A program made the translations under genes and the position numbers. Positions 8,279 through 40,200 of a stretch of DNA of 64,000 nucleotides are shown here, in pieces. The number at the start of each line of letters is the position of its first letter. Positions within the stretch are counted from its first letter, which is position 1. This DNA comes from a virus. The notes under the pieces were generated by a model. It did no database searches, had not been told where the DNA came from, and saw only the letters and a program-made list of their open reading frames with translations. Location of the stretch: positions 5,772 through 69,771 of the IMG/VR virus record IMGVR_UViG_3300044624_001994; one strand, given 5' to 3'.

Positions 8279-10021
8279 CTAATGTCTTTCAGGGTACAAC
8301 ATTTTACCTAATACATTATTGTCTTGCTGCTCTTCCAACTGCAATACCCATTCGGTCAAATACAATTGCTTCGCAACACTCGCTGCATTCTTGACAGCAC
8401 TGATGACAACATCAGCAGGGTCTATAATGCCCTTGTCAATGAAATTAACATTTTCACCCTTACCCGGCAACACCCCATCAAAAAATTCAGTTTCGTCTAA
8501 AGAAATATCAATGTTTATATCTACTGCTTCAGGCTTAACAAACAAATTCTCATTGACCTTACAATAAACAACACTCAAACTTTCAACCAAAGCATTATAC
8601 CCCATAGCGTAATCGTATGTGTGCGAATCTTCGTCATGCTTAAATCCATCACGCAATGACTGCATGCCCTTTAGATAAGCTATTCCAGCACCTGGAACAA
8701 TACCACCTTTTAATGAAGCAAAACAGGCCCTCTGCACATCATCAATAACCATCTTGCGGTAATTTAACTCAATGTCACTATCTCCACCTACATAGATAGT
8801 ACCCATACCACTTACCAATCTTGATACCCGGTCACGATACATATCCCTTTCACCCTCAAACTCACTATCTTCAATTGACTGCTTTAACTTTTCTACCAAC
8901 GTATTCACAGCAGTACGCAAGCTAATCTCAATCTCAATATCATCAACAAAATCATTCTTTACATCGCTCGGTACAATAATGCACTTGTCCTTCTTCAGTA
9001 CAAACTTATCACAAACACCAAACTCCAACTTCTCCATGTAATCCAACCCTTTTCCAAAGCGGTCAAATACATTGCCAGTAATGTGTGAGAACACCTGCCT
9101 TGCACCAGTCAATACCTTCATGTCCTGCATATAGTCATATCGCATACCACCAAACGCCGGGGCCTTAACTACTAACACAGGCGCACCATTCTTCGCATTC
9201 AATGTCAATGTACTTAATGCACTCCCCTCTATATCACTTACAATCAAAACCAACGGCCTTTGTTTGCCATTTTCAATACATTGCTGCTTCCAAATAGTCA
9301 TTATCGGCTGAATTTCATCCCAATCGCTAATCTTAATGTCAGCTAACAGCACATAAGGATTAACAAGCTCTATCATTCCACTACCAGCCGACAAAAACTG
9401 CTTAAAAGGAATTGTGTGGAACACATAGCCATCAACCTTCTCAACCCACGTTTCTGGACCATTGCTGTCCTTAACCTCAATAATGCCATTCTCACCAACA
9501 CTTGTAACCAAATCACTTACCATACAACCAAGTTCACGATCGCCATTGGCACTAACAATAGCTACATTCTCTAATCGGTCCATAATGATACGACCATTAA
9601 CAACCATCAATCCCCTCTTATTCAAAATAAACTGCTTGAAATCTTCAACAGCAGTTTCAATGCCCCTGCATATTTCAAACTTGTTCACTCCCTCATAATC
9701 ACACAACGAATTTAATAACTTGTAAAGCTGATTAAACAACAATACCGTACTTGTCGTACCATCACCTACTTCCTTTACAGTCTTGCCAGCAGCATCAATA
9801 GCCATCATGGCCATCATATTGTGCAGCTTATTCTTCAAATTCAAATACCTCGCAACAGTAACACCATCCTTTGTACTCATTACACCATTAGGCGTATGTA
9901 TAGCAACTGTCCTTCCCCCAGGCCCCATCGTACTACACACAATGTCACATACATCTTGTAAGGAACTTAACATCTTTTTCTTAATGTCATCCGCATGAAT
10001 TGCATCCGTTAAATACTTCAT
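8279..10021 (-). CDS. groEL: Phage-encoded GroEL-like chaperonin
   Basis: STMGPGGRTV, TKDGVTVA, VGDGTTS, SANGD, KAPAFG, GGIVPGAG and GIIDP motifs. Confidence 0.93.
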   Translation of the reverse strand: MKYLTDAIHADDIKKKMLSSLQDVCDIVCSTMGPGGRTVAIHTPNGVMSTKDGVTVARYLNLKNKLHNMMAMMAIDAAGKTVKEVGDGTTSTVLLFNQLYKLLNSLCDYEGVNKFEICRGIETAVEDFKQFILNKRGLMVVNGRIIMDRLENVAIVSANGDRELGCMVSDLVTSVGENGIIEVKDSNGPETWVEKVDGYVFHTIPFKQFLSAGSGMIELVNPYVLLADIKISDWDEIQPIMTIWKQQCIENGKQRPLVLIVSDIEGSALSTLTLNAKNGAPVLVVKAPAFGGMRYDYMQDMKVLTGARQVFSHITGNVFDRFGKGLDYMEKLEFGVCDKFVLKKDKCIIVPSDVKNDFVDDIEIEISLRTAVNTLVEKLKQSIEDSEFEGERDMYRDRVSRLVSGMGTIYVGGDSDIELNYRKMVIDDVQRACFASLKGGIVPGAGIAYLKGMQSLRDGFKHDEDSHTYDYAMGYNALVESLSVVYCKVNENLFVKPEAVDINIDISLDETEFFDGVLPGKGENVNFIDKGIIDPADVVISAVKNAASVAKQLYLTEWVLQLEEQQDNNVLGKMLYPERH

Positions 10022-10328: not shown

Positions 10329-10679
10329 CTAATTGTAAATTTTTTGAATTACTGAATCTATTTCTTTAAAATTTGTCTGCAAATGAACCTGATAACCACT
10401 GCCTATATGTACCTGATACAAAACATTAAAATCCATCTCACCCTTGTCATACAACCATACCATCCTAAACTGAATACTGCCATCCTCTTTCTTAATAGCA
10501 TTGGACAACGTACTTAACCTCTCCATCTCCCACTCATTAACTCCTACAACCAACACAATCCTATCCCGGTAGTCAATGTGCTTTATCTTATGTAAGTTCA
10601 TATAAAGTATAGCATGCCTCACAATACCGCCAGTATGCCCAATGAAATTATCTATAAAATCTTCATCCAATCGCATCAT
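10329..10679 (-). CDS. Hypothetical protein
   Basis: 116 aa in the operon. Confidence 0.6.
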   Translation of the reverse strand: MMRLDEDFIDNFIGHTGGIVRHAILYMNLHKIKHIDYRDRIVLVVGVNEWEMERLSTLSNAIKKEDGSIQFRMVWLYDKGEMDFNVLYQVHIGSGYQVHLQTNFKEIDSVIQKIYN

Positions 10680-10912
10680 TTTTTATTATACTTCGATACC
10701 GGTTCAACATGTAATCCAAAATAAGGCTGAACATTAAAATGCATAAACAACGTGCATATCGTACTCCACTTAGGGTCCACCATTCCATACTCAATCTTCT
10801 TAATCGTCAAAAATGATATGCCAGTAGCTTCCGCTAACTTCCTTCTCGAAAGTTTGTGTGCAGTCCTTATCATTCTTAACGAAATCCCAATAGTAATCGC
10901 ATCTTCAGCCAT
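10676..10912 (-). CDS. XRE/Cro-family helix-turn-helix regulator
   Basis: LRMIRTAHKLSRRKLAEATGISFLTIKKIEYGMVDPKWSTI is a typical HTH_3 pattern. Confidence 0.85.
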   Translation of the reverse strand: MAEDAITIGISLRMIRTAHKLSRRKLAEATGISFLTIKKIEYGMVDPKWSTICTLFMHFNVQPYFGLHVEPVSKYNKK

Positions 10913-11000
10913 TTTTGTGTGTCATATAGCGTATATTATCCCGTTTTTGGCATACTGCACTATTCTACTGAGTAGCACAGTAAGGGATATTAAAGTTGCA

Positions 11001-11031
11001 CAAAAATATAGCTTTTTTACAATTCAGCAAA
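11001..11031 (-). promoter_or_regulatory. Bacteroidota sigma-A type promoter for the leftward operon
   Basis: Minus strand TTTG (11028-11031), 19-nt spacer, TATTTTTG (11001-11008) matches the -33 TTTG / -7 TAnnTTTG consensus, ~90 nt upstream of the HTH gene. Confidence 0.7.
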
Positions 11032-11090
11032 CATTTGCTCATTTTTTTAAAAAGTTGCCTGGTATGTTTGTTAGGGGGTTTTAATATGAG

Positions 11091-11150
11091 AGCGGGGGGG
11101 CGGTCGGCGGCTCGGCGAATCGGTTTTTTACCCCACCCCCCCCAAATTCC
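11091..11150. other. GC-rich G-run/C-run element at the strand-divergence point (candidate packaging/terminus site)
   Basis: GCGGGGGGGCGGTCGGCGGCTCGGCG...CCCCACCCCCCCC in an otherwise AT-rich genome, non-coding, between divergent operons. Confidence 0.35.
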
Positions 11151-11422
11151 AGCCAAAACCTAAACCCAAATGCCCAAATGCTTTATTCATGGTCATTTGC
11201 TCCCTTGAATCCTCATTTTCCTATAATTTGCATTATGTTAAATAGAATCTGAAATGCCCATCAGCACTACGTTTCAGCGTTTGTTGTATATTATAGGGAA
11301 AAAATGTATTATATATACCGGTCAATTATCGTTCTGCTTCCTTCCATCTTGCTTTTTTTGTTCGTTCTGTTCATCCAGTCAGTTTTTTGTCTGTTCGTGA
11401 AGGATTTTTATTTGTTGCGTGG

Positions 11423-11430
11423 TATCTTTG
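11423..11430 (+). promoter_or_regulatory. Candidate -7 promoter element
   Basis: TATCTTTG (TAnnTTTG) 60 nt upstream of ORF 11491; no correctly spaced -33 element seen. Confidence 0.4.
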
Positions 11431-11490
11431 GCGAAATAAAACCACACACACAAAAAAGATCTTTTTAACTTTTTTATTTTTTCTCCCTGC

Positions 11491-11841
11491 ATGAACTTAC
11501 AAAAACTCTTAATTTGTTTAAATACCTCTGCCTTAAATGTGGCTAATTTTCATTCTTTGCCCTTAGGAGCAATTTATTTGCTTATCTTGATACAAGATAA
11601 GGATAACGCAGAAAAAACGCTTAAGACGCTTATTTTAGAGGTTGAGCAGCTAACAAACGCACACAGCTCAAAAATTGCAGCCGAAAGGCTTATAAATGAT
11701 AACTACATTGTAAGCCATAACACAAAATTTTTAATTGGTTCTTCCTTCAATAGGTTTTATTCTTTATCTGCCTTAGGTCGGGAAGTTCTTATATCATTAC
11801 AGATTGAAACAGACAAGCAGTTAAAAAGTGTTAAATTTTAG
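11491..11841 (+). CDS. Putative winged-helix (MarR-like) DNA-binding protein
   Basis: 116 aa; AAERLINDNYIV...RFYSLSALGREVL resembles a wHTH wing and terminal helix. Confidence 0.45.
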   Translation: MNLQKLLICLNTSALNVANFHSLPLGAIYLLILIQDKDNAEKTLKTLILEVEQLTNAHSSKIAAERLINDNYIVSHNTKFLIGSSFNRFYSLSALGREVLISLQIETDKQLKSVKF

Positions 11842-12122
11842 CCTTTTTTCTGTGTATTCAATAAATCTTTAAATTATTGAAAAATATTTTTTTTGACTGA
11901 AATGTAGTTCCAGCCTATGTTTCAGTCTTTTTTTGCTTGTTTCTTAGTGTATGGTTATAAAAAAAAGTTAGCTAAATATTTTTTTATTCAAATCTTTTTT
12001 CTGAATCTTTGTATGTCCTCAAGCGGAGGGCATGGATTGAAAATGTGCATATACGCAGTTCTCGTTGAACAACAGATGGCTTTTGCGTACATGGTGTAGT
12101 GGTTCTTTGACTTTGTGGGCTT

Positions 12123-12200
12123 CCTTATTTGTTGCAATTGTGCAATAGGGCAAATTTACAGAAAGGCGTAAAACGTCGGGTTCGATTCCCGAAATAAGGA
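12123..12200 (+). ncRNA. tRNA-like cloverleaf element (non-canonical)
   Basis: Acceptor stem CCTTATT/AATAAGG, arm TTGCA-ATTG-TGCAA, arm TTTAC-AGAAAGGC-GTAAA, canonical T-arm TCGGG-TTCGATT-CCCGA. Lacks a D-loop GG, a 7-nt anticodon loop and CCA. Confidence 0.55.
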
Positions 12201-12235
12201 CTATTTATTTATTCATCTTTTTAAAACTTACTACC

Positions 12236-12424
12236 ATGTTACAAAAAAAGTATTTTGCTAATCTATCAGTATTGAACGATAGAGTTTATTCTTACAACAC
12301 TTTCGTAGCTGAAATTTGCCACGAAACACAAGAGGTTAAAAGGCTGGGTTTTTGGTCAGTTACCACCAGCAAACATATAAATTATGTTGCTTCCTTGCTT
12401 AGATACAAAGTTGTTAACGCTTAA
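12236..12424 (+). CDS. Small hypothetical phage early protein
   Basis: 62 aa, VYSYNTFVAEI..WSVTTSKHINY; starts 35 nt after the tRNA-like element. Confidence 0.7.
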   Translation: MLQKKYFANLSVLNDRVYSYNTFVAEICHETQEVKRLGFWSVTTSKHINYVASLLRYKVVNA

Positions 12425-12439
12425 ATAAATTTTACTGCT

Positions 12440-12526
12440 ATGTTTATTTACATTCTTTATTATTCGGTCTGTGTTATTATGCTTATTACTTGCTTTGTTG
12501 GGTTTTACTATGCTGACAAAAAATAA
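12440..12526 (+). CDS. 28-aa hydrophobic peptide
   Basis: Manual translation MFIYILYYSVCVIMLITCFVGFYYADKK*; its TAA overlaps repeat copy 1. Confidence 0.55.
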   Translation: MFIYILYYSVCVIMLITCFVGFYYADKK

Positions 12527-12568
12527 CGGAACTTGGAGCATGGGCGGAATCGTTTTCCGCCTTCCGTT
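12525..12568 (+). repeat. Structured intergenic repeat copy 1 (type A)
   Basis: AACGGAA-CTTGGAGCATG-GGCGGAA-TCGTT-TTCCGCC-TTCCGTT. Confidence 0.97.
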
Positions 12569-12607
12569 CAAAACTTATTTATTTATTCATCTTAAAACTT
12601 AATTTTT

Positions 12608-12823
12608 ATGAAAATTATAATTGAAGACCAAACACTTTTTGGATTCCAAACTTGGGCAGGAGCAACAGAAACAAAAAATGCTATTTTAAAAGCTGATAAA
12701 GGGCATCACTTTGAACTTTTAATTGAGGAATTATACCCCGAAGGTTTAACAGATGTTCAATTAAACGACATTTTATGGCATGAGTGGGATTATATTTTCG
12801 AACAACTTGGTATAACTGAATAA
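12608..12823 (+). CDS. Small acidic hypothetical protein
   Basis: 71 aa, FQTWAGA..LTDVQLNDILW; lies between repeats 1 and 2. Confidence 0.75.
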   Translation: MKIIIEDQTLFGFQTWAGATETKNAILKADKGHHFELLIEELYPEGLTDVQLNDILWHEWDYIFEQLGITE

Positions 12824-12866
12824 ACGGAACTTGGAGCATGGGCGGAATCGTTTTCCGCCTTCCGTT
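12823..12866 (+). repeat. Structured intergenic repeat copy 2 (type A)
   Basis: Core identical to copy 1. Confidence 0.97.
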
Positions 12867-12902
12867 CAAAACTTATTTTTTCACTTTTTAATCTTAAATT
12901 TT

Positions 12903-13055
12903 ATGGAACTTTTATCTGTCATGTTAATCTCTTATTTCTGTCTGTTTTTGGTGTTTGCTTATACAGAAAGACACACCATTATTAAAAACCTATCAGATAG
13001 CAAAAAACGCTATTGGGATAGAAACAATTTCCAAGACTACAATAACTTTTTTTAA
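12903..13055 (+). CDS. Small membrane protein (50 aa)
   Basis: MELLSVMLISYFCLFLVFAY...; start moved to ATG 12903, 36 nt after the repeat. Confidence 0.55.
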   Translation: MELLSVMLISYFCLFLVFAYTERHTIIKNLSDSKKRYWDRNNFQDYNNFF

Positions 13056-13077
13056 CGCTCGCTTAAAACCTTATAAA

Positions 13078-13281
13078 ATGAAAACTTCAGAGTTAAAACA
13101 GAATTATTCAATATTTGGCAATAAAGGTACTGTTTGGTCAAATACTGCACACATTTATAAATCGGGTCAAGGTTTACTTTGTGGCACTCCTGCACTATCA
13201 ACTAATTGGGCAGCCATTGAAAAATTAGAAGAAATCGGATGTAAAGAATGTTTGGCTAAATACAAAGACGAACAAAAATAA
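13078..13281 (+). CDS. Small protein with His/Cys (possible zinc-binding) motif
   Basis: MKTSELKQ..AHIY..LLCG..GCKECLAKY; stop abuts repeat 3. Confidence 0.65.
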   Translation: MKTSELKQNYSIFGNKGTVWSNTAHIYKSGQGLLCGTPALSTNWAAIEKLEEIGCKECLAKYKDEQK

Positions 13282-13324
13282 ACGGAACTTGGAGCATGGG
13301 CGGAATCGTTTTCCGCCTTCCGTT
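13281..13324 (+). repeat. Structured intergenic repeat copy 3 (type A)
   Basis: Core identical to copy 1. Confidence 0.97.
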
Positions 13325-13360
13325 CAAAACTTATTTATTCATTCTTAAAATCTCAATTTT

Positions 13361-13672
13361 ATGAGCAGTTTAAAATTAGATAGTGTTTCAATGGTGATGT
13401 TAGATGTTAGCAAAATTCACCCTTTTATTCTTGACTTTATGGTAGGTCAAGCCGAATTTATTGACAATTCGGGAACATTAAACGAGAGTATATATTTTGC
13501 ATCATTTTTTGCCGATTTTCAGACCATATTTATTCCATTGTGGGATTCTGTTGCGACTGAATATAAAGATGGCTCAGAAACCCAATTAAAAGCCTTAGAA
13601 GCCATTAAACAATGGTATGAACTTGAAGTAATTTGTAAAAACTACTTTTATTGTATTTTAACGGGACAATAA
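13361..13672 (+). CDS. Hypothetical protein
   Basis: 103 aa between repeats 3 and 4. Confidence 0.7.
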   Translation: MSSLKLDSVSMVMLDVSKIHPFILDFMVGQAEFIDNSGTLNESIYFASFFADFQTIFIPLWDSVATEYKDGSETQLKALEAIKQWYELEVICKNYFYCILTGQ

Positions 13673-13715
13673 CGGAACTATGGAGCATGGGCGGAATCGT
13701 TTTCCGCCTTCCGTT
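13671..13715 (+). repeat. Structured intergenic repeat copy 4 (type A, +1 nt in linker)
   Basis: AACGGAA-CTATGGAGCATG-GGCGGAA-TCGTT-TTCCGCC-TTCCGTT. Confidence 0.97.
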
Positions 13716-13751
13716 CAAAACTTATTTTTTCATTCTTAAATTTTTAATCTC

Positions 13752-14039
13752 ATGTCATTACAGAAATTAAACTTTGCCAAATTAGAAGAATTTGAACCTA
13801 CAATTTACCATGAATTTGTAAATAGTCAAGGCAAACAAATTCGATTCGTTGAACATCCATTTGATGGTGATGAATACCCAATTATCATTATGTTTATGGA
13901 AGATAGAAAAGCATTCAATTCGGAATTTTACGATTTAGACGATATGCTTGCCGACCATAAAGATTACGAACCTATGTTAGTAATTGATTCAGAAGGTAAA
14001 AAACAATGTGTTTTCGGTTATGAACTAAAACTATATTAA
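13752..14039 (+). CDS. Acidic hypothetical protein
   Basis: 95 aa between repeats 4 and 5. Confidence 0.75.
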   Translation: MSLQKLNFAKLEEFEPTIYHEFVNSQGKQIRFVEHPFDGDEYPIIIMFMEDRKAFNSEFYDLDDMLADHKDYEPMLVIDSEGKKQCVFGYELKLY

Positions 14040-14082
14040 ACGGAACTTGGAGCATGGGGAGAATCGTTTTCTCCCTTCCGTT
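14039..14082 (+). repeat. Structured intergenic repeat copy 5 (type B)
   Basis: AACGGAA-CTTGGAGCATG-GGGAGAA-TCGTT-TTCTCCC-TTCCGTT. Confidence 0.97.
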
Positions 14083-14118
14083 CAAAACTTTATTTATTCA
14101 TTCTTAAAACTTAATACC

Positions 14119-14403
14119 ATGCAAAAAGCAAAAGTATTTTTGAACGTAACGGAAACCAATTTTGGCAAATTTCCAACACTACCAAACAATCAAAAAGTGA
14201 ACAGAGATACAATTGTTTACTATGCTTCAAAAGTTACTGATAAAGGAAAGGAAAGTATTTTTTTCTTGATAAGGCATAAAGATGCAAAGCTATTAAAAGA
14301 TAATAATTTTGACATTCAGTCAATTTTAGTTCCTGCTGGCTTCTATCCAGCTGCAATAAGTTACAAGTATAACGATACAAGACTTGAAATAAACTTTATT
14401 TAA
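14119..14403 (+). CDS. Hypothetical protein
   Basis: MQKAKVFLN...; start moved to ATG 14119, 36 nt after the repeat. Confidence 0.7.
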   Translation: MQKAKVFLNVTETNFGKFPTLPNNQKVNRDTIVYYASKVTDKGKESIFFLIRHKDAKLLKDNNFDIQSILVPAGFYPAAISYKYNDTRLEINFI

Positions 14404-14424
14404 AACTCACAAAATTTCGATTCT

Positions 14425-14727
14425 ATGAACTTAAACCACCATTTCTGGACAATCAATAAGCAATTCGTTTTAGATGTCTTAAAATACGAACTTGGAAGCG
14501 ATGTGACAATAATTGATGCATCTTATCGGAATGACGAATGCCCGAGTTTTGAAATTTCATATCAAGGCAAAGAAGGTAAATTATATTTGCCATCTCATTA
14601 TGAAGGTGAATTTAGCAATTATATGTTTTTCGAAGAAAAGGAATTTGAAAACATGGATGACATTAAATATTATTGTAGCTCAAATTTGGGTGAAATATTA
14701 CAATGCATCAATAATCACATTTTCTAA
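14425..14727 (+). CDS. Hypothetical protein
   Basis: 100 aa with DASYRNDECPSF motif. Confidence 0.7.
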   Translation: MNLNHHFWTINKQFVLDVLKYELGSDVTIIDASYRNDECPSFEISYQGKEGKLYLPSHYEGEFSNYMFFEEKEFENMDDIKYYCSSNLGEILQCINNHIF

Positions 14728-14744
14728 TTTTAAAACTTATTACA

Positions 14745-14942
14745 ATGCAAAAAGCTATCAAATTACTTGCAAAAGTAAAGACTAAAAGCAATTTCAGACA
14801 ATTGAATGATACCTACCTACCAATAGATGAAATGCAGGAAAGCAGGGTAACTTGCTTAGTCTATGACCATGACTACAAAAAGTACATTAAAGTAGATTTT
14901 CATCTCACAGAAGTAACAGATTTTAAAACAATTCAAAATTAA
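14745..14942 (+). CDS. Hypothetical protein
   Basis: 65 aa in the operon. Confidence 0.65.
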   Translation: MQKAIKLLAKVKTKSNFRQLNDTYLPIDEMQESRVTCLVYDHDYKKYIKVDFHLTEVTDFKTIQN

Positions 14943-14948
14943 CCTACC

Positions 14949-15122
14949 ATGACACACCAGCACGTCTTTTTAAAGACTTTATTTGCAAAGGTAATAGAAC
15001 CTACCAACAAAGGAGTAAAAGTTCTTACAATGGATAAAAAAGGATTCACAAAGACTGAAAAAACAGGCAAGATCCAGTTTTTTAGTACAGACGAATGGAA
15101 AACATTATTTAAAGCAATTTAA
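14949..15122 (+). CDS. Hypothetical protein (57 aa)
   Basis: Manual translation MTHQHVFLKTLFAKVIEPTNKGVKV...WKTLFKAI*; fills the gap between neighbours. Confidence 0.6.
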   Translation: MTHQHVFLKTLFAKVIEPTNKGVKVLTMDKKGFTKTEKTGKIQFFSTDEWKTLFKAI

Positions 15123-15133
15123 ACTCCTATTTT

Positions 15134-15373
15134 ATGACAGCAGCAGAAATTAGAACCAACACAAAAAACATGACTTTTGAACAAGCATGTGATTATATTC
15201 AAAGCATAGGTCTTGAACTGATTCCTTCAGAAAACCATCCTTTTCTGAAAAGTTGGGAAGTTAAAAACCATAAGGAATTTAGTCGAATCTCAAGTTATAT
15301 GGAATACGAACTGAAAGGCGCAAAACTTGTAAAAAGGAAAGCAGATGTATTGTTTTGTTTTCATGAATTTTAA
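15134..15373 (+). CDS. Hypothetical protein
   Basis: 79 aa; stop abuts repeat 6. Confidence 0.7.
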   Translation: MTAAEIRTNTKNMTFEQACDYIQSIGLELIPSENHPFLKSWEVKNHKEFSRISSYMEYELKGAKLVKRKADVLFCFHEF

Positions 15374-15416
15374 CGGAACTTGGAGCATTGGGGAGAATCG
15401 TTTTCTCCCTTCCGTT
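15372..15416 (+). repeat. Structured intergenic repeat copy 6 (type B)
   Basis: Linker CTTGGAGCATTG; type B stem. Confidence 0.97.
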
Positions 15417-15447
15417 CAAACTTATTTTTTAACCTGCTGACGATGAT

Positions 15448-15476
15448 TCGGTGACGATAATAGTTAGCAAAATTTT
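15448..15476 (+). repeat. Second repeat family, copy 1
   Basis: TCGGTGACGATAATAGTTAGCAAAATTTT, also at 19393 and (23-nt core) at 19426. Confidence 0.9.
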
Positions 15477-15484
15477 AATGCCTT

Positions 15485-16024
15485 ATGGAAAATTTAGAAT
15501 TATTGATTGGCAAAACTGCTGCTAAAAAAATCTTTGATAACAATGTCAATGTGATGCAATGCAGCGAGGATTCTATTCAGTATTTAATTGGGAAAAAAGC
15601 GGCTGCAAAGATAAGTGCTGCAAAGCAATTGTTTGTCGCTAAGGAAGAATCTGAAACGATAAGAAGCAGCAAGAATATTGCAGATATTTTTCGGGAATTA
15701 AAGTTTTTGGATATAGAACAAATGCACGTTTTATGTTTGAACAGAACTAACAAAGTAATAAGCAAGTTTATGCTGTCAAGTGGAGGTAGGTCGGCAACTT
15801 TATGCGATATGGCAGTATTGTATAAAAGAATATTACTTAGTAATGCCAGCGCATTTTGTGTAGTACACAACCATCCATCGGGCAACAATGCACCTTCGCA
15901 AATGGATATAGAATTGACTAAGAAAATATATCAAGCATCTTTAATTCTTGACTTAAAACTTCTTGACCATGTAATTATAGCTGGAGATGATTATTACAGT
16001 TTTTGTGACAATGGACATTTATAA
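15485..16024 (+). CDS. radC: RadC-family JAB/MPN domain protein
   Basis: EQMHVLCLN..N..VHNHPSGNNAPSQMD..LLDHVII JAMM motif. Confidence 0.92.
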   Translation: MENLELLIGKTAAKKIFDNNVNVMQCSEDSIQYLIGKKAAAKISAAKQLFVAKEESETIRSSKNIADIFRELKFLDIEQMHVLCLNRTNKVISKFMLSSGGRSATLCDMAVLYKRILLSNASAFCVVHNHPSGNNAPSQMDIELTKKIYQASLILDLKLLDHVIIAGDDYYSFCDNGHL

Positions 16025-16066
16025 CGGAACTTGGAGCATGGGGAGAATCGTTTTCTCCCTTCCGTT
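16023..16066 (+). repeat. Structured intergenic repeat copy 7 (type B)
   Basis: Core identical to copy 5. Confidence 0.97.
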
Positions 16067-16094
16067 CAAAACTTATTTTTTCACTTAATTTTTA

Positions 16095-16349
16095 ATGCTT
16101 ATGAACTATCAAAAAATGTATGAGGAATTGCTCGCTGAATTTGAGCAGTACAAAAGAGAATCTGTAAAATGGTCTGTGGATGACTTTTTAACTTACAATG
16201 ATATTTATGCCGACAAAGGTCTTTATATCACAATAGGCAGAGCAAAAAAAGCCTTAGAACACATGATTAAATCACATGATTCCGAATATGGAATTTCTTG
16301 GAGTAGTGTTGATTGTTTTTTCAATTTGTATGCTTTAAAATCTGAATAA
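16095..16349 (+). CDS. Hypothetical protein
   Basis: 84 aa, WSVDDF..HDSEYGISW. Confidence 0.7.
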   Translation: MLMNYQKMYEELLAEFEQYKRESVKWSVDDFLTYNDIYADKGLYITIGRAKKALEHMIKSHDSEYGISWSSVDCFFNLYALKSE

Positions 16350-16351
16350 CT

Positions 16352-16525
16352 ATGATGTTTTATTTTTTGATCTTGATAGGCATAGTTAAGCCACAAGACG
16401 ATGAATTGTATGCTTTTTTTACTCCCGATGGCAAAGTATATGAATACTGCTATAAGGAAGAAATTATTGAAGCAATAAAGACTGGGCAATTCTGCTATAA
16501 TGAAGATTTGCATTTAAACAAATAA
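16352..16525 (+). CDS. Hypothetical protein (57 aa)
   Basis: Manual translation MMFYFLILIGIVKPQDDELYAFFTPDGKVYEYCYKEEII...LHLNK*; stop overlaps repeat 8. Confidence 0.6.
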   Translation: MMFYFLILIGIVKPQDDELYAFFTPDGKVYEYCYKEEIIEAIKTGQFCYNEDLHLNK

Positions 16526-16568
16526 CGGAACTATGGAGCAAGGGGAGAATCGTTTTCTCCCTTCCGTT
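16524..16568 (+). repeat. Structured intergenic repeat copy 8 (type B)
   Basis: Linker CTATGGAGCAAG; type B stem. Confidence 0.97.
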
Positions 16569-16603
16569 CAAACTTATTTTTTCACTTTTTAATACTTAAA
16601 TTT

Positions 16604-17131
16604 ATGTTCGAAATTAAAGCAAAAATAGGCAATATTGACTTGTCAATGTTTGACCTTAAACAACTAACAGACAATGCTAATTCTTCTGCTGAAGCATTAC
16701 AGAAACACAATGATGATGTGTATTGTAAATTTCAAGAATTCGTTTTAGATTTTATCGAAAAAACAAATTCAGTTTTAGCTAAAATTGGATTAGACGAGAG
16801 ATTTATAAATACAAATTACCATATTAGAGAAAATTATATATGTTCACGTTCTAATGGTCTTTATTGTAAATATGATATTGGTCATGGAAGGGCATCAATC
16901 TATCTTTATTTTGAAACCGACAAAATAAGTGATAAATTAACTTATGATTTTAAAGGTCAAATAATAATAAGAAAAAGCTGGAATAATAATTTTATAAGAG
17001 AAGAATATGACTTAGAATCAGTAGGTCAGGTTTTTGAACTTGGAGCAGATGTTATTAAATTTTTTATAATTGATAGAGATGTTACTGATAATGATGCAAG
17101 ACGGAAATTAGAAAAGGAATTGACCTACTAA
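16604..17131 (+). CDS. Hypothetical protein
   Basis: 175 aa between repeats 8 and 9. Confidence 0.75.
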   Translation: MFEIKAKIGNIDLSMFDLKQLTDNANSSAEALQKHNDDVYCKFQEFVLDFIEKTNSVLAKIGLDERFINTNYHIRENYICSRSNGLYCKYDIGHGRASIYLYFETDKISDKLTYDFKGQIIIRKSWNNNFIREEYDLESVGQVFELGADVIKFFIIDRDVTDNDARRKLEKELTY

Positions 17132-17175
17132 ACGGAACTATGGAGCATGGGGAGAATCGTTTTCTCCCTTCCGTT
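17131..17175 (+). repeat. Structured intergenic repeat copy 9 (type B)
   Basis: Linker CTATGGAGCATG; type B stem. Confidence 0.97.
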
Positions 17176-17211
17176 CAAACTTATTTTTTCACTTTTTTAA
17201 TCTTTAATTTT

Positions 17212-17748
17212 ATGGCAAATATGTGTTATAACTATGTTGTGTTCAGCGGTGAACCAGCAAACATTGAAAAACTCAATCAAAGGATTGATGAAGCTATTGA
17301 AACTGAAAAAAGGACTCAATTAGCACAACAGATTCATAGTCACGAAGAAATTATTGATAGGCATTTTTTTGATTTAAGCAAAGACATGACTGATGAAACA
17401 GAACTGAATATCATGTATGACACAAAATGGGATAGCAATATCTTAGATGTTGCCAAAATTTGTGTTGAATTTGGAGTAACAGCTAATCATGAATTCAGTG
17501 AAACATCTTCTTACATCTATGGAAGCTGTTCTATTGATGAAAAAGGTAATGTCATTGAAGATACTGCACCAGCTGAATTTTGTGATTTGATTGATTATGA
17601 CGAAGAAAAAGATGTTTATATCTACAATGGCGATGAATGGACTTTTCAAGATGAAATTTTTGAATGGGAATATGAAAGATGGAAAGCAAAGCAACCCGAA
17701 CAATATTGGTTAAAGACTTATAATCTTAATGATTTTATAAACAAATAA
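17212..17748 (+). CDS. DUF1281/YubB-like ferredoxin-fold protein
   Basis: MANMCYNYVVFSG N-terminus and YDTKW motif resemble this family; start moved to ATG 17212. Confidence 0.55.
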   Translation: MANMCYNYVVFSGEPANIEKLNQRIDEAIETEKRTQLAQQIHSHEEIIDRHFFDLSKDMTDETELNIMYDTKWDSNILDVAKICVEFGVTANHEFSETSSYIYGSCSIDEKGNVIEDTAPAEFCDLIDYDEEKDVYIYNGDEWTFQDEIFEWEYERWKAKQPEQYWLKTYNLNDFINK

Positions 17749-17791
17749 CGGAACTATGGAGCAAGGGGAGAATCGTTTTCTCCCTTCCGTT
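17747..17791 (+). repeat. Structured intergenic repeat copy 10 (type B)
   Basis: Core identical to copy 8. Confidence 0.97.
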
Positions 17792-17824
17792 CTAACTTAT
17801 TTTTTAATTTTAATACTTAATTAC

Positions 17825-18943
17825 ATGAAAATTCAAATCGTAAAAGCAGAATTGCTTGAAGCAATCAAGACAGTTATCAAAATTGTTCCTTCTAAAGCAA
17901 TTATCCCCGACATTGAAAACATTTGTTTGCAGGGTAAAAATGGTATTGTTACCATCTCCGGTACTGACCTCACTACTTTTGTAAAGTACACATTGAATCA
18001 GAAATCTTACTTTGAAGGTAATTTTGAATTTCTGATTGATGCAGCAAAATTTGACAAAATTGCTTCTCTGTGCGATAATTATGTTGAAATGGAGGTAATG
18101 GGTGACAAGTGCAAAATAACTACCTTACAAGGTAATACAACGCTTCCTATATATGAAGCAAGTTGTTTTCCCGATAAGAAAGAAATAGGAGATAAAATAG
18201 CTGATTTTAGCGAAAAGCAAAATGTCTTTTTTCACATCAAAAAAGCTATTGGCTATGTAAGTACAGATGAATTGAGAATAAATATGTGCGGAGTTCATCT
18301 TGATATTGTTGATAATACCTTGTCAGTACAAGCAACAAACGCAAATATTCTTTATCTACATGATACAGAATGCGTCAGTAAAACCAACACAAGTGTTATT
18401 ATTCCTGCAAAGACTTGCAAGATCTTGACAAGTTTAGAAAATGATGATTTTTCTCTTTATCAAATATCTGGAACTGAATATAGATTCCAATATCAAACGA
18501 TTGACATATACTTTACTGCAACAGATGCAAAATACCCACAAGTAAGAAGCATTATTCCAAAGCAAAGTGACCATATCAATGTATTCAGTTTTAAGAAACA
18601 AGATATTATTAAGACGATAAGTGCAGTAATGATAACTGCCAATATTCAAACAAACGGAATCCAATTCTATGTTGGTGATGAAACAGCTAAAATCAAATCT
18701 GTTGACCTTGATAATAACATGGAAAGTGAAATGGAGCTGAAAGTTAGTATTGACAAAAAAGTTGATGATGTCTTTAAATTTGCTGTCAATGGTAAGTTTA
18801 TTACAGATGTTATAAACAGCATAAATTTGCCAAATTCGGAACAAATTACTTTTTACATGAGAGAGTTAAACAAGGCATTGTTATTCTATACAGATGACTT
18901 TAAAACGCTTCACATAGTAATGCCAATCGTATTTAATGACTAA
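17825..18943 (+). CDS. dnaN: DNA polymerase III beta subunit (sliding clamp) homolog
   Basis: 372 aa from MKIQIVKAELLEAI; GTDL, STDELRINMCGV, ATN, IIPAK, KYPQVRSIIP, VNGKFI and C-terminal IVMPI match the clamp pattern. Confidence 0.9.
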   Translation: MKIQIVKAELLEAIKTVIKIVPSKAIIPDIENICLQGKNGIVTISGTDLTTFVKYTLNQKSYFEGNFEFLIDAAKFDKIASLCDNYVEMEVMGDKCKITTLQGNTTLPIYEASCFPDKKEIGDKIADFSEKQNVFFHIKKAIGYVSTDELRINMCGVHLDIVDNTLSVQATNANILYLHDTECVSKTNTSVIIPAKTCKILTSLENDDFSLYQISGTEYRFQYQTIDIYFTATDAKYPQVRSIIPKQSDHINVFSFKKQDIIKTISAVMITANIQTNGIQFYVGDETAKIKSVDLDNNMESEMELKVSIDKKVDDVFKFAVNGKFITDVINSINLPNSEQITFYMRELNKALLFYTDDFKTLHIVMPIVFND

Positions 18944-18960
18944 CAACTTATTTATTCATG

Positions 18961-18987
18961 GGGCAGTATTTTGCTGCCCTATTTTTT
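18961..18987 (+). terminator. Hairpin / probable intrinsic terminator
   Basis: GGGCAG-TATTTTG-CTGCCC followed by TATTTTTT. Confidence 0.55.
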
Positions 18988-19007
18988 AATCCTTAATACT
19001 TAATATT

Positions 19008-19391
19008 ATGAAATTTGAAATTGTAAACCTGCAAAATGCAGATGTGCGTAAGAATCGCAAAGAAAACCACTTTTATAAGGAAGATGCAGTTATGACTATT
19101 ATTGATGGTAGAATACAATGCAAGTTTATTGTAAGGTACTATGCAACAAGCAAAACACACTACTGCTGTATATGGCTGACATTACCTAAAACAGCATATA
19201 TCCATAGTTCTGGCTGGGCTGGTGGTTATGGCTATCATAGGGAATCTGCTGCCTTAAATGATGCACTAAAGAATTGTGGCATTGAATTTTATAACTTAGC
19301 TGGTACTGGGCAAGGAGAAGAAGCATTGAAGATGTTGTTTAAGCATTTTTACCCCGATTTGACCTGCATGATTCATACTGCCCATGCGTAA
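19008..19391 (+). CDS. Hypothetical phage protein
   Basis: 127 aa with GWAGGYGYHRESAAL motif. Confidence 0.75.
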   Translation: MKFEIVNLQNADVRKNRKENHFYKEDAVMTIIDGRIQCKFIVRYYATSKTHYCCIWLTLPKTAYIHSSGWAGGYGYHRESAALNDALKNCGIEFYNLAGTGQGEEALKMLFKHFYPDLTCMIHTAHA

Positions 19392-19392
19392 C

Positions 19393-19448
19393 TCGGTGAC
19401 GATAATAGTTAGCAAAATTTTTAGTTCGGTGACGATAATAGTTAGCAA
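19393..19448 (+). repeat. Second repeat family, tandem copies 2 and 3 (33-nt period)
   Basis: TCGGTGACGATAATAGTTAGCAA at 19393 and 19426. Confidence 0.9.
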
Positions 19449-19465
19449 TTTTTTGCATCCGAACA

Positions 19466-19699
19466 TTGACTGACTATGATAAATGGCTTCATTGCCGGCA
19501 TCCCAATACGATAGTTTTTATCAAAACAGATGCCGGCATTTTAACATTTGATGACGATGCAATAAAAGTAGGAAAAGCAATTTCAAGAATTGTTAAAAAC
19601 GATATGTTGCTGATACCGGAAAATGTTAAACATTTGGAGATGTCACATCTTAGTAGGCTTGGTTACAATGTGAAAGAAATAATTTACTGCTGTGTATAA
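19466..19699 (+). CDS. Hypothetical protein, weakly MutS-N-terminal-like
   Basis: 77 aa, TTG start; HPNTIVFIK..TFDDDAIKVGK. Confidence 0.4.
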   Translation: MTDYDKWLHCRHPNTIVFIKTDAGILTFDDDAIKVGKAISRIVKNDMLLIPENVKHLEMSHLSRLGYNVKEIIYCCV

Positions 19700-19705
19700 A
19701 AACAC

Positions 19706-19739
19706 AAAGGGCACATGACTATTCATGTGCCCTTTTTTT
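19706..19739. terminator. Bidirectional intrinsic terminator between convergent operons
   Basis: AAAGGGCACATGA-CTAT-TCATGTGCCCTTT followed by a T tract. Confidence 0.85.
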
Positions 19740-31511: not shown

Positions 31512-31520
31512 GATACAAAA

Positions 31521-31547
31521 TAAAAGCCAGCGATTAACTGGCTTTTA
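31521..31547. terminator. Bidirectional hairpin
   Basis: TAAAAGCCAG-CGATTAA-CTGGCTTTTA. Confidence 0.6.
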
Positions 31548-31583
31548 AAACTTATTTATTGACCTTATTACTTAATGCCGATA

Positions 31584-37244: not shown

Positions 37245-40200
37245 TTAATTATTAAATAGTTTCTTTTTGACATAAGATTTTTTATTAAGATAAATCGTTT
37301 CATTGCCTATTTCTATATAGCCATTATTTAAGAACTTATCATACTCAGCAGTTTTTTCTCTCCATATCTTGTAAATGACTTCAGCATCTTTAATAAACTG
37401 CTCATACGCACCTTTTCTATCACCATCTTCTTGTGTAGATACAAATGCTTCAATGACCTTTTCTAAGTCATTATAATCAGATGATTGCCATAAATCATAT
37501 TTGTTAGCCATTTCTTTAATACCTTGTACAGCTGTAATGTTTTCTATGTCGCTTTTTCTAATAAATCCTGATATTTTCATAATGTCAATAGCATTGTCAA
37601 ATATTGATTCGGATTCCCAAGATGCCTTGCCTATAAAACTGTTTTTATCATCGCCAGGCTTATATTTATTTAAAGCTGCATTGTATTCCTTTTCGCTTTC
37701 ATAGTCATCTCTTTCGGGTACACCAGGGCGTAATGTTTCAACTGTTTTCGTACCTACTTCTCCGAAAAATGTAAAATATGATTTTATCAAGTGGTCAATA
37801 TTTCTACTATCTTGACCGCCTAATGCATCGCCAAGAATATTGCCTAAATAGGAACCAGTTCCTTCTTTCTCTCTATCAGCAACTGGTACTTTAGATTCTC
37901 CGTATGGAATAATAGTTGACTTATAAAACGTATTATAGTTTGTAGATACTTCTACTATTGGCTTTAAAGTTCCAATAATATCCCACTTTAACTTGTTTGG
38001 ATTAAATAAAGAATATGCGTTTCCGTAAGAACCTATATGACCTCTAAATGCTTTTTCCATATCTTTTGTATGAATACCTTGCACTAATCTTTCAGCAGAT
38101 GTACCCATTAAACCATATTCAAATGGCTTTGGTATTCTTATCATTTCATTTGACACAGCTGGTATTTTGAAATTATAGAATAGGTCACGCTCGTGCGGAG
38201 GCAATTCCATGTATTCGTCTTCATAACCACCTAAATATGCCATTGCATAGAAGAAAATAGAAGGCAATGCAGCACCTGCAATTATAGATGAAAATGCTTG
38301 TGCCGGATTTTCTCTCATTGCTTGCAACATTCTTAATTGACCTTGTAGCTGTGCATTCGAAAATGGTATAACTCTGTTAATTAATTTCATGACAGTACCA
38401 ATCTTAGCAAAGTCCATCAAATCCCTTGCTTGATAGGCAGCATATAAAGCAGCATCATACTCGTCATAGCCCAATTTAGTCATAGCGTATTTATATGCAG
38501 ATTGATATTCTGTAACCCTTGTTACACGTTCTCCTTGAGCTAACCAATTATCGTAATTATTGTAAATGTTTTTTAATGTTTGAAAATCTACAACAATACT
38601 ACCTGAACCTTTTTTGGCAAATTTTCTCATTTCCCTATAAAGCGCAGCATAGTAATGCTCTCTTGACTTTGTATAATATCCTGCTTGTCCACCACCATAC
38701 AACTGAAGCATTTTATCAGCATCACTTCTTGTAAGTGTTGCAATTTCTAATATGTTATCAATTTCTTGTTTTGAGAATCCATATTCCTCCATTGCCGCTC
38801 TTGTGTTAAAATTATTATATAGCGTTCTGCTTATAAATAATTGTTGCTGTAAATCTCTTATGATGTTCCTTGCAGCAAAAAATGGATTTTTGGTAGCTGT
38901 AAATCTTACTAATTTGGCTTGCGCCCCAACTATGTTTAATGTCATATTGAGCAATGCACTTTGCTTATCTCCTTTAAAAGTAGTAGATAATGCTTCGTAA
39001 ACGGCCGGGTCAAATTCCCATACTTCACGCACACCATTATTAAAAATAACAATAGCTGGCCTATCGCCTATTTGCTGATTAGGGGCCATTTGTATCTGTC
39101 GGCCGATATTAGCAGTTGCTTGCGGAGAACCTTGTTCCATTCCACGATTACTTCTTAATAAATCAGCAAATTGATTGAGCATATAATTTGTATCAGCTTC
39201 TTCAATCGCTTTGTACATATTTGTCATTAAGTTCTCGTATGGATCAAATCTATCCCTTGAACTACCAACAATTTTGTCATCAAATGTTTGTCTTCCTGAT
39301 GCCGTTTTAAACAATGATGCTTGTGTAGAATCATCAAAATTTGTATCAAATCCCGGCGTTGAACTCATGACACGATTCATAGCAACATACTGCAAGTTAT
39401 TATCTTTGATTTCTTTTACAAATTCAGGAGATAACCTGCCATGGTCCATCATGTAAAACAAAATTTGGTCCGCAAATACCCGGTATCTTCTTGCTGCCTC
39501 TTTTAGCATTTCTTGTTTCTCTGGTGTTAATTCAGTTTTGACAGCATTAAGCAGTTCTTTTGCTGCATCAAAGTCATTTTGCCCAAGCAAACCAAGTCCA
39601 GATATTACTCTTTGTTTTATCTTGTTCAACAATGGATGATTAGATATGTCGGGGTGTAATGTATCATAGTCACTATTTACCCAATCCATCAATTTATCAA
39701 TTGTTGCAACATTATCAATGTTTATTCTAAATCCATTGTCAAGTAAAAACTGCGCTTTTTCTTCAGCATTTTTTACCGGGTCTGTTGTTTTTCTATCAAT
39801 GTTATAAAATTCATATTTAATTTGAGCGTAGTCGGCATCTGATATTTTATACATATCAAATATCTCTTCCTTTGCAAAACGCTTAGACAACTCAACGGTA
39901 CGCTCTGCAACCATGTATGAACCTACAAGTTGCTTTGCTTCTACTATCTCTTTTAATCTTTTTTTAAAGCCTTTAAATCCTGCTTCTAACATACCGAATG
40001 GTTCAGAAAGCCAACGAAGTGTTATAGCTTCTTTTTTGCCAGTCTTTGGATTGGTGTCCATTGCTTGTGTATAACCTTTTGGACCTAATCGAACCATACC
40101 ATCTTGTTGCAATAGACCAATTTTATCACCAATGCCCGGCAATTGCCTTGCAAGCCAGTAAGGGTTTTTAGAAGGTCTAATTTCTTGCATTCCTTTGATG

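Follow-up and report, generated by a model that had tools for sequence, protein, structure and literature searches.

The window analyzed here is a 64,000-nt stretch (bases 5772-69771) of the 69,771-bp virus record IMGVR_UViG_3300044624_001994, which has 127-bp terminal repeats. Nearly all genes of the record are on the minus strand. The sole plus-strand block lies at 11.3-19.4 kb of the window and consists, according to Pfam and PHROG, of small genes mostly without a family, together with a RadC-like gene, a gene for a protein with an Api92-like domain and a beta-clamp gene. The genes of this block are separated by a repeated intergenic element, a bulged hairpin followed by an AT-rich leader, which is the subject of this work. 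Ten copies had been listed in an original prediction made from the sequence; a looser pattern scan and an alignment gave ten, every one on the plus strand and co-oriented within one 5.3-kb block (Table 1).

Over the whole record the pattern search returned ten forward and no reverse matches, and the same pattern written backwards, used as a control, gave none in either direction. A 40-nt pattern with free stem positions and up to 3 mismatches found 8 matches, against 0.00 expected from 100 shuffles. The ten copies were used to build a covariance model, with which they score 87.0-96.6 bits; beyond them the best match reaches 23.8 bits, and the other 23 listed matches stay at or below 15.7.

Each unit fills the complete intergenic spacer, from the upstream stop to the next start. 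A 7-bp outer stem (AACGGAA/TTCCGTT) opens the hairpin, and its first 1-2 nt are shared with the TAA of the upstream open reading frame (ORF) in all ten copies. This stem encloses a conserved bulge of 11-13 nt, present on the 5' side only and including TGGAGCA, and a 7-bp inner stem closed by a TCGTT loop. The 3' arms of the two stems abut, so that the 3' strand of the helix is continuous and the predicted fold is a coaxial 7+7-bp hairpin. The stem is followed by CAAAAC (or CAAAC, CTAAC), by a T-rich run and then by the AT-rich leader, whose end is the ATG of the next gene, 28-39 nt past the stem, in 9 of the 10 copies. The exception is copy 6, in which a longer spacer takes the place of the leader and holds one copy of a 29-nt repeat (15448-15476). 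The copies share about 80 nt of identity, and their 46-nt core is identical save for a swap in the inner stem and variation in the bulge.

In the leaders, runs of A are found around -11 to -14 and at -5/-6, as in the start regions of this genome. Upstream of 55 genes, A is enriched at -13 (41/55), -12 (41/55), -11 (35/55), -6 (31/55) and -3 (32/55), and a core resembling a Shine-Dalgarno (SD) sequence occurs in a single case (1/55). The same A-rich upstream rules make up the initiation signature of Flavobacterium johnsoniae in the sections of PMC6847099 that deal with it. Because of this match (few SD sequences, A at -13 to -11, -6 and -3), the host is very likely a member of the Bacteroidia. 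The DNA turns up in lake-water metagenome runs, and the phage is an uncultured freshwater podophage of Bacteroidota type from a lake source. SD-driven initiation from the GGAG of the bulge was rejected, given the rarity of SD-like cores in this genome.

Gene callers turn copy 10 into a 23-aa N-terminal extension of the beta-clamp, and public gene calls extend proteins through copies 9 and 10 (17140-17211 and 17756-17824), which then appear as an N-terminal MEHGENRF...; shorter cluster members show the true starts to be 17212 and 17825. A small ORF inside the repeat was rejected as well: the internal ATG is gone in copies 8 and 10, and the frames differ. Upstream of the array, a strongly hydrophobic 28-aa ORF (12440-12526, plus strand) ends exactly on the TAA that opens copy 1 and may be a real small membrane peptide.

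The original prediction distinguished two inner stems, GGCGGAA/TTCCGCC in copies 1-4 (type A) and GGGAGAA/TTCTCCC in copies 5-10 (type B), separated by four substitutions that swap two adjacent pairs and keep pairing. The ten-row alignment bears this out, with all 140 cells of the 14 pairs standard. Between the 4 type A and the 6 type B copies two pairs change in both arms, C-G to G-C and G-C to A-U, and no variation is seen in the remaining 12. When the 3' partner is slid by 1-3 columns, pairing falls to 38-69%. The percent paired and the covariation score were reached by none of 500 shuffles; the count of pairs changed on both sides was reached by 432 of them and is therefore non-discriminating here. 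The remaining variation of the core is, as had also been predicted, limited to the unpaired linker: between the outer arms only the bulge varies, by an extra A, an extra T or a T>A change (Table 1). Further variation is found just 3' of the outer stem and within the leader. The span 13671-14082, to which the prediction referred, runs from the start of the outer stem of copy 4 to the end of that of copy 5, i.e. across the A/B boundary.

Folded as RNA, type A reaches -18.4 kcal/mol (z -2.8, 1 of 200 shuffles as good) and type B -17.4 kcal/mol (z -2.6, 4 of 200), and the hairpin is predicted in every copy tested (z about -2.5 to -2.8). The fold of the opposite strand is just as good, and the predicted DNA folds are at -11.5 (A) and -9.7 kcal/mol (B). 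In a trimmed core the two natural states stand at -17.4 (A) and -16.1 kcal/mol (B), and the other fourteen ways of combining the four variable sites give -11.8 to -18.2 kcal/mol. Among the latter are two singly compensated states (-18.2 and -15.9 kcal/mol) and one G-U intermediate (-15.2 kcal/mol). An uncompensated state costs 1-6 kcal/mol. No wobble-pair route exists for the C-G to G-C flip, and each route through it passes a state of -11.8 to -13.8 kcal/mol. Such a doubly compensated change is what constraint on a helix predicts; it suggests that the fold matters, and falls short of proof.

The original prediction had gone further, taking the compensated change as direct evidence of selection on a single-stranded RNA or DNA fold. 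We cannot follow it there, because there is one comparison and no strand information, and because templated correction and operator half-sites would do as well. The compensation is a single A-versus-B comparison between two stem types, to which the 12 invariant pairs bring no information. All pairs are Watson-Crick on both strands, so that RNA, single-stranded DNA and the strand concerned are not distinguished. In templated (template-switch) correction of a quasi-palindrome one arm is copied from the other, which makes the arms complementary in one step; it would yield the change in the second arm without selection. Symmetric changes in half-sites are equally expected for a palindromic operator.

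The Bacteroidota -7 box, TAnnTTTG in the promoter consensus given by the relevant part of PMC6847099, is absent from the plus strand of all ten elements; near the block, non-coding plus-strand boxes are found at 11063 and 11423 only, upstream of the first gene. Since no element carries a plus-strand TAnnTTTG, the genes of the block are probably co-transcribed. A sigma-70 scan gave no excess (41 found, 40.1 expected in shuffles). An antisense promoter was rejected: the perfect minus-strand box TAAGTTTG, pointing into the hairpin, occurs at 15424, 16576 and 17183, that is in the three CAAAC-spacer copies only (3/10), and it has G at a position where, in the same part of PMC6847099, G virtually never occurs. 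Intrinsic termination, which takes a G+C-rich hairpin with a T run 0-2 nt behind it, was rejected too. In the repeats the T run starts 7-8 nt past the outer stem, and a terminator scan flagged hairpins at 11895, 18958 and 19706 and none of the ten repeats. Rfam, searched over 11000-19500 at E up to 1, returned four weak matches and no credible family on the repeat; they include MIR319 (minus strand, 29 versus 54 bits), which overlaps copy 5, and two matches on the 18958 terminator.

The leader is not tied to the bulged hairpin. In the first cassette the place of the hairpin is occupied by a tRNA-like cloverleaf (12123-12200), and similarity to the leader begins right after its acceptor end. 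The cloverleaf is degenerate, with good acceptor, D and T arms and an aberrant anticodon arm; in a 116-nt search it scored 27.9 bits with the Rfam tRNA model (RF00005), against a gathering score of 29 (E 2e-4). We also considered whether it could be a tRNA fragment of attP type and rejected this, its 3' part having no match in the species genome collection. Downstream of the beta-clamp gene a true terminator is likewise followed by a leader (Table 1). The post-stem motif has 8 matches in all, against 0.33 expected; three sites are outside the repeats, and one of these follows a hairpin at 31520-31563, the only further covariance-model match of note, where leader-like sequence comes after the spacer. 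On the minus strand this last hairpin is terminator-like and lies 12 nt ahead of the next ATG. Because the leader also follows the tRNA-like element and a true terminator, a structured RNA, a spacer and a start region form a recurring unit in this genome.

Table 1. Coordinates of the repeat copies and of associated features in the window
Feature	Coordinates	Strand	Loop-motif start	Basis
Copy 1, type A; from TAA of the 28-aa ORF to ATG at 12608	12524-12607	+	12547	alignment, covariance model
Copy 2, type A	12821-12902	+	12845	alignment, covariance model
Copy 3, type A	13279-13360	+	13303	alignment, covariance model
Copy 4, type A, extra A in bulge	13670-13751	+	13694	alignment, fold
Copy 4 parts: outer stem 13671-13677/13709-13715, bulge 13678-13689, inner stem 13690-13696/13702-13708, loop 13697-13701		+		
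Copy 5, type B	14037-14118	+	14061	alignment, fold
Copy 5 parts: outer stem 14039-14045/14076-14082, bulge 14046-14056, inner stem 14057-14063/14069-14075, loop 14064-14068		+		
Copy 6, type B, extra T in bulge; ahead of RadC-like gene	15371-15484	+	15395	alignment
Copy 7, type B	16022-16094	+	16045	alignment, covariance model
Copy 8, type B, extra A and T>A in bulge	16523-16603	+	16547	alignment, covariance model
Copy 9, type B, extra A in bulge; true downstream start 17212	17129-17211	+	17154	
Copy 10, type B, extra A and T>A in bulge; ahead of beta-clamp gene (true start 17825)	17746-17824	+	17770	
tRNA-like cloverleaf (12123-12200), then leader to ATG at 12236	12123-12235	+		Rfam tRNA, fold, leader similarity
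Clamp stop, spacer motif, terminator hairpin (18958-18982) and T run, copy-10-like leader to ATG at 19008	18941-19007	+		
Canonical terminator-like hairpin and T run near start of plus block	11895-11927	+		terminator scan
Bidirectional terminator-like hairpin closing plus block against converging minus-strand genes	19706-19735	.		terminator scan
Lone simple hairpin, then repeat-type post-stem spacer, between two minus-strand genes	31520-31563	+		covariance model
First gene of plus block, 116 aa; possible winged-helix, MarR/PadR-like	11491-11841	+		structural lead, TM 0.61-0.69, below naming bar
Cro/C1-type helix-turn-helix protein, 78 aa, heading the diverging minus-strand genes	10676-10912	-		HTH_3, E 2.6e-6

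The order of the copies, four of type A followed by six of type B, was confirmed; an order with a single boundary has a chance probability of 2/210 (0.0095). Directional growth of the array and local gene conversion had both been proposed to explain it. Simple directional growth is disfavoured by the other markers. The extra bulge A is present in copy 4 (type A) and in copies 8-10 (type B), and the CAAAC spacer in copies 6, 8 and 9. Leaders that begin with CAT are found in copies 1, 3 and 4 (type A) and 5 (type B), and those that begin with CAC in copies 2 (type A) and 7-9 (type B). All four combinations are thus present for stem type with bulge type and for stem type with leader class. This independence of the bulge, spacer and leader markers from stem type points either to exchange among copies or to recurrent change. 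Recombination or gene conversion between the copies is thereby favoured over a simple directional growth of the array, and the single A/B boundary fits exchange that prefers neighbours.

Comparison with related strains points likewise to recombination or gene conversion, through rearrangement joints at repeats. Contigs from four lake metagenome runs were compared with the window over 11000-19500; the strains are several per cent diverged (63 differences in 1,129 nt for one lake contig). Of the 12 indels listed, 5 fall in elements, all of them in bulge, spacer or leader and none in a stem. Six of the nine joints listed have an end in an element or at most 6 nt from one, against 21% expected (binomial tail 0.004), and four of the nine have both ends there. 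Examples are a jump from where copy 6 starts to where copy 9 starts, the loss of the gene at 15134-15373 with a break exactly at copy 6, and a copy-5-like leader fused to the gene that copy 2 precedes in the window. These joints are suggestive only.

Relatives of the beta-clamp were found at 95, 93, 76 and 60% identity. The five related clamp proteins that read through copy 10, and so carry the 23-residue extension, all keep the type-B stem peptide, in a comparison to which synonymous stem changes are invisible; the differences from the window are confined to one bulge codon and, in one protein, to one post-stem codon as well. Neither the clamp alone nor a 3-sequence clamp alignment found a locus in viral contigs, and a search with DnaB gave four loci at 33-35% identity, without an analogous repeat array. 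In an elemo Flavobacterium phage, whose large terminase subunit (TerL) is 25% identical, genes are tightly packed and the first 32 kb hold no such array. The repeat itself has no copy elsewhere in the genome record, and a 22-nt pattern had no match in a genome collection of 185,579 species. The gapped repeat pattern found no locus in viral contigs; its six matching loci in metagenome contigs are due to chance, each being a lone match within a conserved, more G+C-rich stretch of coding sequence. A blastn search with 5.6 kb gave no match in the phage collection, and a search for the translated repeat as an N-terminal region gave one candidate and none that scored; the collections may omit records very close to this genome, and these blanks do not show relatives devoid of the repeat. 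Among the literature matches listed, there was no report of such repeats in Flavobacterium or Cellulophaga phages.

The reading that we prefer, and to which we give roughly an even chance of being correct, is that the element is a stop-to-start linker. The accessory genes of the block would be co-transcribed, each stop being joined to the next start by one unit. In the polycistronic transcript the hairpin would be an intercistronic structure, serving as a processing site, as a protection of the upstream 3' end and/or as an attenuator of read-through; it would also insulate each unstructured, A-rich start region from the coding sequence upstream. The analysis shows how the unit is built, how many copies there are, that they pair, that they carry the initiation signature, that their markers are mosaic, and that they lack both a host promoter box and a canonical terminator; the role at the RNA level, and with it a nuclease or another protein partner, is our inference. 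With about 80 nt of identity between them, the copies would at the same time provide homology for recombination and gene conversion. As the mosaic markers suggest, recombination may act as the homogenising force, making neighbouring copies alike and so producing the A and B blocks, and it may shuffle gene cassettes between strains.

Several observations weigh against this reading, in addition to the single stem comparison and the strand symmetry already discussed. None of the listed runs in which this DNA occurs is registered as RNA. The proteins scanned, several of which are without matches, gave no recognisable nuclease (no ribonuclease family in Pfam or PHROG), RNA-binding protein or recombinase, and about 2,400 N-terminal residues of a 5,092-aa protein match no family and no PDB sequence. 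A 14-bp helix with a one-sided bulge is short for RNase III. Contigs assembled from k-mers can break or misjoin at repeats, and several of the joints have a short side (21-34 nt) or an insert of unknown content. None of the substitutions listed (40 of 537) is in an element, which says nothing on stem substitutions in relatives. Finally, the distant phages examined have no analogous array.

Of the other explanations, the one that survives best, unlikely as we judge it, acts at the level of DNA. The element would be a phage-specific promoter and/or a palindromic operator to which a dimeric regulator of the phage binds; the operator would be the inner inverted repeat (two 7-bp arms with a 5-bp spacer), and A and B would be two classes of it, possibly temporal. 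Phage promoters usually look like co-oriented conserved motifs just upstream of genes, and there are ten such motifs here; the symmetric change in both half-sites suits a dimer site as well as a hairpin. The window sequence has GGAAC and CGTT separated by 18-19 nt, which we take to be close to the spacing of ECF-type (extracytoplasmic function) promoters. Candidates for the regulator are the first gene of the plus block, whose modelled fold resembles winged-helix, MarR/PadR-like structures and which has no Pfam or PHROG match, and the Cro-type helix-turn-helix protein encoded at the divergent junction. These two differ in fold and so do not make an obvious paralogous pair for operator classes that are nearly identical. 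A promoter is opposed by the lack of a plus-strand -7 box in the elements and by the lack of any sigma factor or RNA polymerase in Pfam, PHROG and PDB-sequence searches, in which many proteins had no match at all; the 5,092-aa and 1,615-aa virion-type proteins gave no polymerase family and no PDB-sequence match. A symmetric dimer leaves unexplained both the invariant outer repeat, which directly adjoins the 3' arm of the inner one and is interrupted on one side by a gap of 11-13 nt, and the exact start on the stop codon.

That exact start, seen in 10/10 copies, is what a second and rather improbable alternative takes up. The hairpin would mimic a tRNA acceptor/T-arm minihelix, the host RNase P and/or RNase Z would cut the early transcript at each stop codon, and the cloverleaf at 12123-12200 would be an ancestral or alternative form of the signal. 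The stacked 7-bp outer stem, the continuous 3' strand and the bulged 5' strand reproduce the acceptor/T-arm topology, and the first cassette has a near-threshold cloverleaf before the same leader. The repeat, in contrast, has a loop of 5 nt instead of 7 and no encoded CCA. A 101-nt Rfam search with copy 4, at E up to 10, gave no match to a tRNA or tRNA-like family, and ARAGORN called no tRNA gene in the window, the cloverleaf included.

A third alternative, to which we attach little weight, is a selfish miniature hairpin without any phage role, akin to repetitive extragenic palindromic (REP) sequences or miniature inverted-repeat transposable elements (MITE), with the compensated change produced by templated quasi-palindrome correction. 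The unit is indeed short, palindromic, exclusively intergenic and nearly identical between copies, and sponge mitochondria reportedly contain repetitive hairpin-forming elements that can be compared with it. Against this, the ten copies are co-oriented with the genes in one block, span exactly from stop to start and include an initiation region of working type, and there are none elsewhere in the genome or in the 185,579-species collection. The REP/MITE class was rejected on the flanks, TA and CA, which differ and show no target duplication, and on the scans, which detected no transposase or Y1-type enzyme. A role in single-stranded DNA, whether as a hairpin promoter of the N4 type, as a signal for priming or as a recombination site that resembles attC and is folded from one strand, is highly improbable: a bulged hairpin after each gene in one orientation recalls integron cassette sites, the DNA fold is predicted for both types and rearrangements end at repeats, but no integrase, recombinase or virion RNA polymerase was detected in Pfam/PHROG scans that left some proteins without any match (the integron attC class was rejected on this ground), the outer arms to our knowledge do not fit the attC R-box consensus, and the element, unlike attC sites, carries the initiation region of the next gene.

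For the stop-to-start linker, the closest described system is that of the promoter-early stem-loops (PeSLs) of T4-type myoviruses. In the parts of PMC2839356 and PMC4122927 devoted to them, PeSLs combine a host sigma-70 early promoter consensus, a Shine-Dalgarno site and a stem-loop shown to terminate. [quoted passage not shown] They differ, within the same limits, in that the element described here has no Bacteroidota -7 box and no SD sequence, its hairpin is bulged and lacks an adjacent U run, its copies are far more uniform, and the phage belongs to an unrelated, podovirus-type lineage. We do not file the element as a PeSL, because it lacks an SD sequence and a terminator-like hairpin and because the host promoter that defines the class was not found in it; we regard it as a variant of the PeSL kind from a phage of an unrelated lineage.

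Four other known systems appear to share only single features with the element. The REP palindromes and bacterial interspersed mosaic elements (BIME) of enterobacteria are found on chromosomes, in hundreds of copies and in both orientations, and go together with RAYT transposases. Like the units described here they are short palindromes lying just after stops; they are co-transcribed with the genes, as these units probably are, and protection of the upstream message and attenuation have been proposed for them; here there are ten phage copies in one orientation, fused to a start region, and no such enzyme was found. The RNase III sites of T7 are hairpins of about two helical turns with a symmetric internal loop and differing sequences, and cutting leaves a protective 3' hairpin. 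They also number about ten and are intergenic hairpins with an internal unpaired region in polycistronic phage messages, whereas the present helix has 14 bp, a one-sided bulge and near-identical copies. Sites of attC type need the IntI integrase and a conserved R box, and their sequences vary widely, none of which applies here; an imperfect hairpin with extrahelical bases after each cassette gene, a single orientation and strain-variable arrays are the points in common. Mitochondrial tRNA punctuation and tRNA-like RNase P substrates place structured elements exactly at gene borders, as here, where one element is a tRNA-like cloverleaf and the hairpin has acceptor/T-arm topology; the hairpin is, however, unrecognised by tRNA models.

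If the linker reading is true, the phage has a natural standard expression linker, made of a stop, an insulating hairpin, a spacer and an SD-less start, which it reuses ten times. Bacteroidota signals of transcription and translation differ from textbook ones, and such a unit would be a compact part for multigene constructs in Flavobacteriia. It would also extend the idea behind PeSLs, cassettes that regulate accessory genes as well as shuffling them, to phages other than those of T4 type and to elements without an embedded promoter. Types A and B are a ready natural compensatory pair for tests of hairpin function, and the tRNA-like element in an equivalent position makes the processing hypothesis directly testable. 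Should the tRNA-mimic reading be the true one, the array would be a bacterial-virus counterpart of mitochondrial tRNA punctuation.

The minus-strand genes of the record include those for a portal, a large terminase, GroEL, a primase, DnaB, an O-like initiator, an exonuclease, endolysins and tail fibre proteins. The terminase is 25% identical to those of Cellulophaga phages and of Flavobacterium elemo phages; its matches number 90 records, none of which reaches 60% identity. The 1,615-aa protein has a C-terminal crAss muzzle domain. The 5,092-aa protein is encoded by a single ORF (37245-52523, minus strand) and is polyvalent, its domains being ddrB-ParB, SNF2/ResIII helicase and LPD38. GroEL is encoded at 8279-10021 (minus strand) and, in a scan of 34 ORFs, one small ORF matches Cpn10 (GroES); a GroEL/GroES pair is also carried by the distantly related elemo phage. 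Another of the 34 ORFs matches a class II tRNA-synthetase domain (E 8e-10).

Between the diverging gene blocks, an intergenic region of otherwise 33% G+C contains a G+C-rich island (11075-11150), formed of G runs followed by C runs, which could be an origin or a structure-forming site; several substitutions at 11111-11134, inside it, set the related lake strains apart. The 29-nt repeats form a second family, with identical or 93% identical plus-strand copies at 15448-15476, 19393-19421 and 19426-19454. The first lies between repeat copy 6 and the RadC-like gene and the other two are in tandem directly after the last plus-strand gene; the repeat is a possible regulator site.

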